Source: an uncultured Candidatus Saccharibacteria bacterium
GTDB taxonomy: Bacteria; Patescibacteriota; Minisyncoccia; Phycocordibacterales; UBA2100
Direction of reading: 5' to 3'
Length of the DNA: 56,518 bases
NCBI GenBank assembly: GCA_964604085.1
Contig: CAZRXN010000001.1
Span: 1-56,518 of the forward strand
Part shown: in pieces, positions 22,435-48,396 of the stretch
Layout of the letters: each line of letters opens with the position of its first letter
Position numbering within the stretch: position 1 is the stretch's first letter
Notes under the pieces: model-generated
Seen by the model: only the letters and a program-made list of their open reading frames with translations
Database searches by the model: none
What the model was told of the DNA's origin: nothing
Translations under genes and position numbers: made by a program

Positions 22435-22470
22435 TAGTATGTACTATAGTATATACTATGGTATATACTA
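22435..22470. repeat. three tandem 12-bp palindromic units (TAGTATGTACTA TAGTATATACTA TGGTATATACTA), locus 1
   Basis: Read directly from the sequence. The unit TAGTATATACTA equals its own reverse complement. Near-identical blocks occur at 35016 and 48361. Confidence 0.95.
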
Positions 22471-27159: not shown

Positions 27160-27243
27160 GCGTCGGTGGCGGAGTGGTCAATCGCACGTGGCTGTAGACC
27201 ACGCGGGCTTTGCCCTACGGGGGTTCGAATCCCTCCCGGCGCA
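27160..27243 (+). tRNA. tRNA-Tyr (GTA), class II with a long variable arm
   Basis: Acceptor GCGTCGG/CCGGCGC (one G-U pair), anticodon stem CGTGG/CCACG with loop CTGTAGA, variable arm CGGGCTTTGCCCTAC, T-arm GGGGG-TTCGAAT-CCCTC, discriminator A. Confidence 0.9.
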
Positions 27244-27297
27244 CACAATGTAAAATGGCGGCCCCTGCGGTCGCCATTTTGCATTGGGAGCAGGATT
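27225..27297 (+). repeat. direct repeat copy A (tRNA-Tyr T-loop to 3' end plus downstream terminator)
   Basis: 73 nt beginning TCGAATCCCTCCCGGCGCACACAATG... It matches 27370..27442 with 4 mismatches. Confidence 0.9.
27252..27280 (+). terminator. tRNA-Tyr terminator hairpin
   Basis: AAAATGGCGGCC-CCTGC-GGTCGCCATTTT, flanked by A and T runs. A second copy lies at about 27397..27425. Confidence 0.75.
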
Positions 27298-27369
27298 CGA
27301 ACGGGCGGAGCCGAAGGCGAGCCAGGGCAGTGACCACTTAACGAGCGCAGCGAGTTTAGTGAGTCACGC
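27298..27369 (+). other. 72-bp structured insert between the two repeat copies (candidate miniature integrative element or RNA)
   Basis: Contains hairpin 27330..27367: GTGAC-CACTTAAC ... GTTTAGTG-A-GTCAC. Homologous in sequence and structure to 35174..35340 downstream of tRNA-Cys. Confidence 0.5.
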
Positions 27370-27442
27370 TCGAATCCCTCCCGGCGCACACAATGCGAAA
27401 TGGCGGCCCCTGCGGTCGCCATTTTACATTGGGAGCAGAATT
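27370..27442 (+). repeat. direct repeat copy B (orphan tRNA-Tyr 3' segment plus terminator copy)
   Basis: Begins TCGAATCCCTCCCGGCGCACACAATGCGAAATGG... There is no tRNA 5' part upstream of it. Confidence 0.9.
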
Positions 27443-27628
27443 GCACTCCGGAACTATAGATAATTACACATAAGCCGTTACAAAACTGACCCCATTTTTA
27501 CGATGGGGGCGATGAGCAGAATAAGAATGGGAGCACCACCTATCGTTTGAGGGGCCTTTCTTCAAAACTTGAACAAGCAGGAACGTTGTGATGTAATGCC
27601 GAGGGATCCAAAAGCGAAGGAGATCGCA

Positions 27629-28210
27629 ATGATTCGTTTCCTTTCCTCGATACTCTTGCTAATGTCGACGAGCGCGATAGCAGCAGAGGACATTCTGCTG
27701 GTACAGAGTCCTCCTGTGTATCACTCCGGCGAGTCCGCCGTAGGGGTCGTAATAGGGCAAGACGGCACGAGACTGGCACTGCAGCAAACCGTCCAGCACG
27801 TGGGGAAGCAAGCATACCTTCTGACAACATTCGTCGATGAAGTCGGCAATGTTCGAGGATGGGTGTTGTTCGACCCACGTACGTGGCTTTCTCTAGCCAC
27901 GAACGATGCCACGATCCTGCAAGGTCTGTCCACCACTTGTGCAGCGGATACGCTCTTTCCTATCACGCTGGGCAAAGTGTACGAATGCGTAACCAGCATG
28001 CGGGATGATGATCAAGTCCATACGGCCCGGTCGCGTTTGGAGTTCGACACTGTCCATCGAGACGCGGACGGGAAAATGATCGGATTTTGCGCGCTATCAA
28101 CCGATGATGCGGAAAATCTAGTCTTCTCGGCACGTGTCTGTATGTCTCCTGACGGAAAGTGGATTCGCTCGATAAAAATACTTTCTGTCGCGCAGATCCA
28201 ACGAAGCTGA
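27629..28210 (+). CDS. secreted hypothetical protein
   Basis: AAGGAG lies 7 nt upstream of the ATG. Signal peptide MIRFLSSILLLMSTSAIAAE. The surrounding DNA (27443..28210) is visibly less GC-rich than the flanks. Confidence 0.6.
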   Translation: MIRFLSSILLLMSTSAIAAEDILLVQSPPVYHSGESAVGVVIGQDGTRLALQQTVQHVGKQAYLLTTFVDEVGNVRGWVLFDPRTWLSLATNDATILQGLSTTCAADTLFPITLGKVYECVTSMRDDDQVHTARSRLEFDTVHRDADGKMIGFCALSTDDAENLVFSARVCMSPDGKWIRSIKILSVAQIQRS

Positions 28211-28217
28211 GACTCTA

Positions 28218-28255
28218 GACCGGGTGCCACCAATGGCAGCCGGTCCTTCCTTTTG
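28218..28255 (+). terminator. rho-independent terminator
   Basis: GACCGGgTGCCA-ccaa-TGGCAgCCGGTC followed by CTTCCTTTTGC. Confidence 0.65.
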
Positions 28256-28277
28256 CAGATTTTACTGTGCACGCACC

Positions 28278-34704: not shown

Positions 34705-35018
34705 GCCGCCGCACCGATCAGGTCTCGCAGGAGCTCGCCCAGCACGCGGGCACTTTTCTCTCGCTGAAGTCGAGCCACACATCGCTCATTACGGTTACCC
34801 GCGCGGACGTATCGCCCGATCTGCGCTCCGCTACGATTTACCTATCCGTGCTGCCAGAGCCGCAAGAGAGCGCCGCGCTCGATTTCGCAAAACGCCAGCG
34901 TGGGCCCTTCCGCGAATACTTGAAAGGGCACGCTCGTCTCAAATACGTTCCGACAGTTGATTTTCTCATCGACGGGGGCGAGAAGAATCGACAGCGCATC
35001 GATGAACTCACGCGATAG
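34701..35018 (+). CDS. rbfA: ribosome-binding factor A
   Basis: ATGA start/stop overlap with infB. LITVTRADVSPDLRSATIYLSV is a typical RbfA segment. Confidence 0.85.
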   Translation: MSRRTDQVSQELAQHAGTFLSLKSSHTSLITVTRADVSPDLRSATIYLSVLPEPQESAALDFAKRQRGPFREYLKGHARLKYVPTVDFLIDGGEKNRQRIDELTR

Positions 35019-35051
35019 TATATACTATAGTATATACTATGGTATATACTA
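35016..35051. repeat. three tandem 12-bp palindromic units (TAGTATATACTA x2 plus TGGTATATACTA), locus 2
   Basis: Read directly from the sequence. The first unit starts with the rbfA TAG stop codon. Confidence 0.95.
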
Positions 35052-35098: not shown

Positions 35099-35173
35099 GG
35101 CCCGATGGTGAAGGGGTAACACGGCGGTCTGCAAAACCGCTACGCGCGGGTTCGAGTCCCGCTCGGGCCTCCA
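35099..35173 (+). tRNA. tRNA-Cys (GCA) with encoded CCA
   Basis: Acceptor GGCCCGA/TCGGGCC, anticodon stem GCGGT/ACCGC with loop CTGCAAA, T-arm GCGGG-TTCGAGT-CCCGC, discriminator T (U73, as expected for Cys). Confidence 0.9.
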
Positions 35174-35340
35174 GACCGAGAGAATCGTGCGTTTGCACGA
35201 TTCGTCCGGACTCGAAAGGCGCAGCGATGTCGCGAGCTTGCGAGCGACCGCGAGCCCGGGCAGCCTGCCTGCCGGTAGGCAGGGAGCCACTTAGCGAATC
35301 GGAGCGCCGGGCGCGAACGATGAGCTTAGTGAGCTGACGC
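35174..35340 (+). other. about 167-bp structured insert downstream of tRNA-Cys, homologous to the tRNA-Tyr insert
   Basis: Hairpins GAATCGTGC-GTTT-GCACGATTC and CCTGCC...GGCAGG. Three GCGAGC copies. Terminal hairpin 35285..35335: AGC-CACTTAGC ... GCTTAGTG-A-GCT. Confidence 0.5.
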
Positions 35341-35358
35341 CGAGTCCCGCTCGGGCCT
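35341..35358 (+). repeat. orphan direct repeat of the tRNA-Cys T-loop-to-discriminator segment
   Basis: CGAGTCCCGCTCGGGCCT is identical to 35153..35170 inside tRNA-Cys. Confidence 0.85.
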
Positions 35359-48360: not shown

Positions 48361-48396
48361 TAGTATATACTATAGTATGTACTATAGTATATACTA
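48361..48396. repeat. three tandem 12-bp palindromic units (TAGTATATACTA TAGTATGTACTA TAGTATATACTA), locus 3
   Basis: Read directly from the sequence. Lies between divergent pth and lepB. Confidence 0.95.

Follow-up and report, generated by a model that had tools for sequence, protein, structure and literature searches.

Why should the end of a tRNA gene, together with the hairpin that follows it, stand a second time a short distance downstream as an orphan? The question is raised by the tRNA-Tyr locus of a 56,518-nt stretch of DNA from an uncultured Candidatus Saccharibacteria bacterium (contig CAZRXN010000001.1, positions 1 to 56,518; hereafter the window), where a repeat finder run on the window reports a 73-nt direct repeat (27225-27297 and 27370-27442; 95% identity, spacing 145) that begins with TCGAAT in the T-loop and spans the tRNA 3' end and a long hairpin. 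The initial annotation had described this repeat and its four mismatches correctly, and its suggestion of a miniature non-autonomous element or a tRNA-linked structured RNA is supported by what follows. The answer that we favor, with about an even chance of being right, is that the repeat flanks a small, non-autonomous, protein-less mobile structured element that bears a guide, chooses its site by pairing between guide and target, is joined to the host gene at T55|C56, and has its guide masked by the orphan copy of the tRNA end.

The tRNA-Tyr(GTA) gene lies at 27160-27244 (ARAGORN; 55.8 bits with the Rfam tRNA model), on the + strand like all parts of the two window elements, and its last 20 nt, T55 to C74 (27225-27244), are the tRNA-borne copy of the direct repeat, here called copy B. 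Directly 3' of the gene stands the long hairpin (27241-27291; an inverted repeat with arms 27241-27263 and 27269-27291), which was first labeled a terminator but received no intrinsic-terminator call, there being no terminator-like site (GC-rich stem plus T run) on the + strand. By comparison across the family, it is instead the counterpart of a recurrent hairpin, Px, and part of the element. It runs into the guide with its junction (GGGAG-CA-GGATTCG plus AACG, 27286-27303), recognized from inverted repeats, alignment to a covariance model (CM), and junction-target covariation. Within this segment, 27293-27302 is a 10/10 complement of the intact T-loop and stem at 27223-27232, and the guide pairs also with the orphan copy at 27371-27382, forming the helix P1. 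The next arm, P2-P3 (27304-27323; alignment to CM R1, covariation of P2 and P3), has GGC 27304-27306 / GCC 27321-27323 as P2 and the minimal hairpin GCC-GAA-GGC (27310-27318) as P3. The P4-P4b-P5 arm (27326-27370; motif matches, CM alignment, and pair counts) reads GGC-A-GTGAC-CACTTAAC-GA..GA-GTTTAGTG-A-GTCAC-GC(T) and contains a U.U mismatch, a bulged A, and tandem G.A pairs; its P4 closes on the first nucleotide of the orphan copy B' (T55 to C74, 27370-27389; direct repeat), which supplies the 3' strand of P1. Beyond B', a second-unit remnant (27390-27442; direct repeat plus inverted repeat) holds a copy of the hairpin (arms 27386-27408 and 27414-27436), weakened by the four mismatches to 78% complementarity vs 83% in the first, and the guide's first 12 nt (GGGAGCAGAATT), where the homology ends. 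The repeat unit at this locus is therefore 145 bp, not the 72 bp originally given as the element's size, and the repeat typical of the family is 19-20 nt; the 73-nt repeat is most simply read as one complete unit followed by a truncated and decaying second unit.

The other window element follows tRNA-Cys(GCA) (35099-35173, CCA encoded; ARAGORN and Rfam), which has an orphan of its own 3' end that is identical at 18/18 positions (copy B 35153-35170; B', C56 to U73 and again the 3' strand of P1, 35341-35358; direct repeat). Its 5' part (35174-35217; sequence and CM alignment) consists of a linker with a partial anti-acceptor segment (GACCGAGA), Px (35182-35203), the guide GTCCGGACTCG (35204-35214), and the junction AAA, with 35209-35217 (GGACTCGAA) complementary to the T-loop at 35151-35159. 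The P2-P3 arm (35218-35256; CM alignment, covariation) combines a P2 of GGC 35218-35220 / GCC 35254-35256 with a P3 of the form GCG(AU)GUCGC..GCGAC-CGC, while the P4-P5 arm (35259-35341; motif matches, CM alignment) has an additional hairpin (35264-35283) inserted after GGGCAG and a P5 made of CACTTAGC (35288-35295) and GCTTAGTG (35324-35331). The hairpin CCACTTAACGA..GAGTTTAGTGAG of the Tyr copy (27334-27363) has its Cys counterpart at 35287-35333, and the motifs CCACTTARCGA and GYTTAGTGAG find exact matches at these two loci only in the window. All of the hairpin details that had been noted earlier are present (the A-T to G-C change, the T.T mismatch, the bulged A, and the outer stems GTGAC/GTCAC versus AGC/GCT), and covariation across the family confirms them. 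The 5' end that the two inserts were said to share did not hold: in the Cys insert, GATTCG (35199-35204) forms the 3' arm of a hairpin with no relation to the Tyr sequence, and it is GGACTCG (35209-35215) that corresponds to the Tyr GGATTCG (27293-27299), each of these two complementing its own T-loop. The homology proposed for the two inserts is borne out by CM R1, which scores both (Tyr 79.3 bits, 27288-27385; Cys 52.3 bits, 35202-35356) and finds no further match in the window; they belong to one family. The remaining six window tRNAs have no orphan copy of their own 3' end.

Copies with the same conserved structure, whose absence elsewhere would have refuted the idea of the initial annotation, turned out to be numerous. 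A scan of 185,579 species-representative genomes for CCACTTARCGA-N(5-35)-GYTTAGTGAG gave 73 loci in about 40 metagenome-assembled genomes (MAGs), nearly all labeled Patescibacteria/candidate phyla radiation (CPR); the locus labels are Kaiserbacteria, Nomurabacteria, Spechtbacterales, Moraniibacteriota, Paceibacterota, Parcubacteria, and Saccharibacteria, and the taxonomic label of MAGs given as "Bdellovibrionales" could not be confirmed. Among the CPR loci, CM R1 has 84 matches at E<=0.01, some of them without the seed motif, and a second CM run at E<=1e-6 yielded 75 copies from 58 CPR loci and the window, both window copies included. As far as sampled, the element is restricted to Patescibacteria/CPR. 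Its position is consistent: about 45 of 75 motif hits have an intact tRNA in the same orientation 72-331 nt upstream and, 6-8 nt past the motif, an exact copy of the 3' end of this tRNA, mostly 19-20 nt (C56 to 74/75). Most CM matches begin 31-70 nt past an intact co-directional tRNA, whose 3' end is repeated exactly, over 18-21 nt, behind the match. The hosts are tRNAs of 18 amino-acid specificities, transfer-messenger RNA (tmRNA; L003, L008, and L042, the last scoring 99 bits with the Rfam tmRNA model), and once the 3' end of a protein gene (L062), one with a zinc-ribbon-like C-terminus, where the repeat is 116 nt long and the guide fits that gene. Two pattern scans of viral contigs returned no full element, only a single chance match in a coding region and a bare P5-type hairpin in phage tRNA arrays, and a metagenome scan with a string from the tRNA-Tyr body returned one unrelated organism, in which the element is absent. 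Rfam 15 has no matching family, either for the whole window at the gathering threshold or for both window copies and a canonical copy at E<=10, the searches returning tRNA, tmRNA, and spurious hairpin matches only; this agrees with the first impression that the insert lies outside the described families. A full-text literature search covering open-access papers and bioRxiv found no description either, and these folded elements of about 150 nt behind CPR tRNA genes apparently constitute an undescribed family.

Members of the family measure about 110-200 nt, encode no protein, and start directly after the tRNA or tmRNA on the same strand. Their anatomy, derived from manual comparison and then from alignment A2, begins with a linker, often (G/A)AACGAAGUGA, a variable anti-acceptor segment, and the hairpin Px, often GCAAAGCAAA-CUGC-UUUGCUUUGC. 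It continues with an anti-T segment (the 5' strand of P1), J1/2 (GAAA, GCAA, or GUGA), P2 (G-N-C), the variable hairpin P3, then GA, P2', and CG or AG. Next come P4 (GGC), a bulged A, and P4b, followed by P5 (CACUUARC / GYUUAGUG) with its U.U mismatch, bulged A, and tandem G.A pairs; P4' (GCC, the last C usually being C56 of the tRNA) then leads into the orphan B', the 3' strand of P1. The core is a three-way junction, and the repeat boundary T55|C56 falls exactly at the point where P4 and P1 meet. A kink-turn reading of P2/P3 and of P5 was tried and rejected, the 3-nt bulge being absent.

This structure is under selection. In the hand-made alignment A2 (24 sequences), 93.5% of cells are paired vs 31-36% with slid partners, compensatory change occurs in 23 of the 36 pairs, and the middle pair of P2 alone appears as GC 10, CG 7, AU 4, and UA 2 times. 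The model-fitted alignment A3 (75 sequences) gives 94.5% paired cells vs 27-38% in slid controls and compensatory change in 33 of 36 pairs, values that are biased toward the model, with the invariance of P5 being partly a product of the seed pattern, but that no shuffle reached. The initial view of the insert as a selected structure, not a random sequence, is supported. Since G.U exceeds A.C among the paired cells (79 vs 36), the folded strand is the tRNA-sense strand.

The part of the element that differs from copy to copy is matched to the neighboring gene. P1 covaries with tRNA identity, so that, for instance, a G or A at position 57 is met by C or U, and in genome S141_160 the copies at L015 and L032/L058 have identical Px and core while about 6 guide nucleotides differ, each guide fitting its own tRNA. 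A second antisense segment, directed to the acceptor strand, precedes Px in many copies; it is perfect over 9-10 nt in L002, L020, L041, L049, L063, and L071, and its longest run averages 6.4 vs 5.2 in permuted controls (control maximum 5.7). In the intact upstream copy, positions 56, 55, and 54 are matched by the first three nucleotides of J1/2, and the guide therefore appears to complement the uninterrupted target, 54-74, across the junction. A GAAA junction faces GTTC in 41 copies and a GCAA junction faces GTGC in 3, while at the protein gene of L062 GUGA faces GCAC. Alongside a guide that pairs with 56-74, the covariation of the junction nucleotides with 54-55 comprises three or four independent events only. 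The duplicated segment is the segment that the guide covers. Position 55 is a U (pseudouridine) in nearly all tRNAs; as an observation in its own right, we record CPR tRNAs whose T-loop is UGCAAAU or UGCAAUU, with G at 55 (tRNA-Phe of L013/L035, tRNA-Met of L050, and tRNA-Cys of L074).

Comparison with relatives indicates that sites are gained and lost. The window comes from a Kaiserbacteria genome. Its GalU, for which an exact-protein look-up gave no record, is 80% identical to GalU of a CG10 Kaiserbacteria MAG, and three syntenic Kaiserbacteria relatives share the gene order ClpB, protease, aminotransferase, IF2, RbfA, tRNA-Cys, GalU. None of these three has an element at tRNA-Cys, and the RbfA-GalU gap is 117-145 nt in the relatives vs 387 nt in the window. 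At tRNA-Tyr, L074/L075 carry the element with a 19-nt repeat and L078 carries a decayed one; the initial annotation had named a decayed 5' half of a second tRNA-Tyr gene as the alternative to look for at this position, and the relatives have the same element instead. L078 also has elements at tRNA-Leu(TAA) and tRNA-Leu(TAG), of which the window counterparts are free. The syntenic Kaiserbacteria thus lack the element at tRNA-Cys but possess it at other tRNAs, which means that it has been gained and lost. Counted over these unbiased loci plus the window, somewhere between a quarter and a half of all tRNA genes are occupied. Tandem arrays occur in L003, L025, L038, and L073 and truncated second units at the window Tyr locus, L058, and L062, and in about one copy in four B' is decayed beyond the first 10-13 nt. 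When window 27160-28277 is set against L075 2715-3029, the tRNA-Tyr gene and its element are inverted relative to clpB in comparison with the relatives, and between the inverted segment and clpB lie an extra ~830 bp with an open reading frame (27569-28210) that has no Pfam family. L075 has in addition a second element of the tRNA-Tyr type (335-467, - strand), preceded by an orphan tRNA-3'-like fragment (GTTCGAACCCTGTCCCGTTGCGGGGCAC) and not by tRNA-Tyr; the scaffold has N gaps, and this copy could be an assembly artefact.

If the element moves in the way that we favor, the guide would recognize a still intact target through base pairs that bridge T55|C56 and so fix the place of insertion, and a joining reaction would leave the gene intact while duplicating the segment that the guide covers. 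B' would then mask the guide in cis, allowing the upstream tRNA still to fold. The chemistry might be a ribozyme-like transesterification, target-primed copying, or the work of an enzyme encoded elsewhere, a recombinase or nuclease whose substrate is an intermediate made of RNA or of a single strand, and the data fit a fixed-length target-site duplication and the integration of a circle alike. A template switch onto mature tRNA is disfavored, because the element-bearing tRNAs mostly have no encoded CCA. In its more ambitious form, which we hold only tentatively, the proposal would be that of an RNA-guided insertion module, protein-free or assisted in trans: a three-way-junction ribozyme or ribonucleoprotein scaffold of ~100 nt whose re-writable, bipartite 21-nt guide directs insertion to a selected phosphate, T55|C56 in tRNAs but others elsewhere as well, and regenerates the 3' end of the gene.

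Several points weigh against guided mobility. No catalytic partner was found: the neighbors are housekeeping genes, and genes for an integrase, transposase, or reverse transcriptase were absent around the window copies and around the solo copies of L028 and L052, the search for mobility genes near the latter giving a single, sub-threshold resolvase match. The guide would have to be rewritten for each new target, a step for which retroviruses offer one precedent, their primer-binding site being copied anew from the primer tRNA. Movement is deduced solely from presence and absence among genomes with 70-80% GalU identity, with no recent insertion or excision caught, and all data come from MAGs. 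In the arrays of L025 and L038, the distal copy is better preserved than the copy adjacent to the tRNA, a poor fit to simple repeated insertion at the T-loop. Finally, at tRNA-Tyr, core and B' have been kept in the window and L074/L075 despite diverged flanks, which could equally mean a host function.

Known guide-bearing and tRNA-directed elements offer partial parallels to such a module. The omega RNAs of IS200/IS605 elements and the bridge RNAs of IS110 elements are likewise structured RNAs at an insertion end, with a specificity segment that corresponds to the flanking target, but here there is no TnpB, IscB, or DEDD recombinase gene and no match to an Rfam scaffold, the scaffold is of another kind, and the guide is internal, antisense, and paired by the flank copy. 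The primer-binding site of long terminal repeat (LTR) retroelements resembles the guide as an 18-21-nt complement of a tRNA 3' end that ends in the T-loop; the element differs in having no reverse transcriptase, LTRs, or polypurine tract, in carrying a sense copy of the tRNA end as well, and in a complementarity that in most copies excludes CCA.

The host function just raised can be made explicit as the strongest competitor, a family of noncoding RNAs that is not primarily mobile, and we regard it as unlikely. The element would be a tRNA-like RNA, co-transcribed with the tRNA and serving a tRNA-related function, in which the helix of guide and B' resembles the acceptor and T-stem, Px stands in for the D and anticodon arms and the three-way core for the T-loop; its excision would fall to the tRNA enzymes of the host (RNase P, RNase Z, and the CCA-adding enzyme). 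Such an RNA would sit naturally where the element does, co-directional and directly after the tRNA, with no scored terminator between them in the window, and the bipartite guide with its reduced cloverleaf topology, the conservation of the core across CPR lineages, and the recurrence of the P5-type hairpin in other evidently RNA-like elements are all in keeping with it. So is the B' of tRNA-Tyr, which is still identical to the tRNA in the window and L074/L075 despite diverged flanks. Against it, about one copy in four has a B' with a decayed acceptor part. A host RNA would also have to accommodate the patchy distribution among close relatives with its decayed copies, the tandem and truncated copies, and the one copy at a protein gene, with a guide fitted to that gene; the mimicry by each copy of its own neighbor tRNA is left unexplained, and the Rfam tRNA model gives no score.

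A second alternative overlaps with guided mobility as one of its possible chemistries, namely that the element represents a new ribozyme class able to cleave, ligate, or splice itself, which we consider doubtful. The P4/P1 junction would hold the reactive phosphate and the guide would act much as an internal guide sequence, so that the element would be an intron-like unit whose removal joins the 5' part of the tRNA to B'. The compact three-way junction has invariant purines (GAAA/GNRA-like, GAG, CG), the repeat boundary lies exactly at the junction and opposite a purine bulge, and the guide appears to bridge the junction in an intact target, its polarity being that of the internal guide in group I introns, in which a long segment pairs on the 3' side and 2-3 nt pair on the 5' side, as P10-P1 do. 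Likeness to group I and group II mobile introns extends to a structured core beside a guide that appears to pair across the insertion junction, to tRNA-gene hosts, and to a patchy distribution. The element is far smaller, however, no intron core was detected (group I P3-P9, Rfam, E<=10), and the host gene normally stays uninterrupted through duplication of its 3' segment. Wherever a copy follows a recognizable tRNA, that tRNA is already intact and splicing is unnecessary, with a single exception; the need for it may exist in L012 alone (~2585-2775, + strand), where a tRNA-Arg(TCT) becomes canonical only after removal of the 118 nt between T55 and C56'. There the upstream 3' end has a 6-nt deletion and no tRNA is called in the unspliced sequence, the sole such case among ~75 copies, but the locus may be a mere pseudogene. 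The small nucleolytic ribozymes (hammerhead, hairpin, twister-sister) are comparable in size, in having a helical junction with a purine-rich strand opposite a defined phosphate, and in a substrate helix of free sequence but conserved pairing. Yet the element matches no known ribozyme model, the consensus of hammerhead, hairpin, hepatitis delta virus (HDV), twister, twister-sister, pistol, and hatchet included (Rfam 15, E<=10), and manual mapping onto the hammerhead and hairpin ribozymes misfits in junction lengths and core motifs.

Another possibility, which the initial annotation had raised, the classic footprint of a tyrosine recombinase, now seems improbable. In that case the locus would be the scar of an integrase-mediated element, akin to the attL-attR structure of a cis-mobilizable element (CIME), with the repeat as attachment (att) core and the insert as a deletion remnant. 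The T-loop is a typical sublocation of tyrosine-integrase att sites, and the direct repeats here do begin in the T-loop of tRNA and tmRNA genes, so that the host gene stays intact, as it does with tRNA-targeting integrative elements; the islands, prophages, and CIMEs of that kind share with our element the site at the 3' end, the tandem arrays formed by accretion, and presence or absence among relatives. They are tied, however, to one or a few att sites recognized by protein, whereas here a single core, fitted each time with a matching guide, serves tRNAs of 18 specificities, tmRNA, and a protein gene. The 75 copies are without exception small (110-200 nt) and share one conserved, covarying fold of RNA type with an internal antisense guide, no integrase gene adjoins any copy checked, and the element is essentially absent from viral contigs. 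An assignment to the miniature inverted-repeat transposable elements (MITEs) was rejected as well: there are no terminal inverted repeats, the only inverted pairing being that of the guide with the target copy, and the repeat is 18-21 nt or longer, not 2-10 bp.

The weakest candidate, a decayed tandem duplicate of the tRNA gene, would supply the orphan 3' end identical to the tRNA and, by complementarity, guide segments resembling 5' acceptor and T-stem strands, but it is hardly credible given that the insert has no D or anticodon arm and leaves the Rfam tRNA model silent, that Px and core are conserved across different tRNAs and phyla, that the guide is complementary and not homologous to the T-loop nucleotides, and that the relatives show the same element with no tRNA 5' half.

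Patescibacteria/CPR account for a large share of bacterial diversity and have tiny genomes, yet many of the tRNA genes in the Kaiserbacteria loci sampled are occupied by this element. A covarying fold with a target-matched guide and no protein may represent either an unfamiliar form of RNA-guided mobility, perhaps one driven by a ribozyme, or a novel role for RNA linked to tRNA genes, and either outcome, if true, would add another family to the natural programmable nucleic-acid systems, so far few in number. As an insertion module, if it is one, it would amount to a novel class of mobile RNA or DNA, programmable and carried by the most reduced bacteria. The element would also account for orphan tRNA 3' fragments that confuse tRNA annotation in CPR genomes, and the covariance model makes the question directly testable in cultured Saccharibacteria.

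Parts of the element are themselves interrupted or found alone. A mini-insertion of 26-28 nt, GGCGATTAG(A/C)AAATCGTGCCGAGAGGCT, recurs after CAGG in different contexts, namely in the element cores of L008, L038, and L073 and in the orphan tRNA-Arg copy of L021 and L068, and the window Cys copy has a different extra hairpin (35264-35283) at the core position that the mini-insertion uses. In L026, L040, and L063 (- strand), a palindromic insertion of ~100 nt (GGCAGGCCCACACCATAC ... GTATGGTGTGGGCAGG) lies within the core, perhaps as a small element nested in the larger one. In L045 (1-200), the 5' part of the element is inverted by a long perfect palindrome centered on a terminator, which may be an assembly artefact. 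The P5-type hairpin occurs bare in the tRNA-Phe/tRNA-Met spacer of large phage tRNA arrays (L080 9405-9436; also L081-L083), and after a Saccharibacteria tRNA-Val (L034 2257-2291) it stands in tandem units of ~70 nt from which the rest of the element is absent. Rumen Lachnospiraceae MAGs (L017 5640-5900, - strand; L023, L046, L066, L031) have an RNA-like element of ~270 nt that matches no Rfam family and combines a closing long stem (GGCTCCGCCCTGCAA..TTGCAGGGCGGAGCC in L017) with several P5-type hairpins, CACUUAGCGA..UCGCUUACGUG.

Two further observations may be recorded. Upstream of the L019 copy (2295-2420, - strand) is a tRNA that apparently has a large insertion in its anticodon loop, possibly a putative group I intron. 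In the window, three arrays of three tandem 12-bp palindromes (TAGTATATACTA) occur at 22435-22470, 35016-35051, and 48361-48396, where chance would lead one to expect none, and one of these arrays lies just upstream of the promoter-like TGGTATATT of tRNA-Cys and may be an operator or promoter module.

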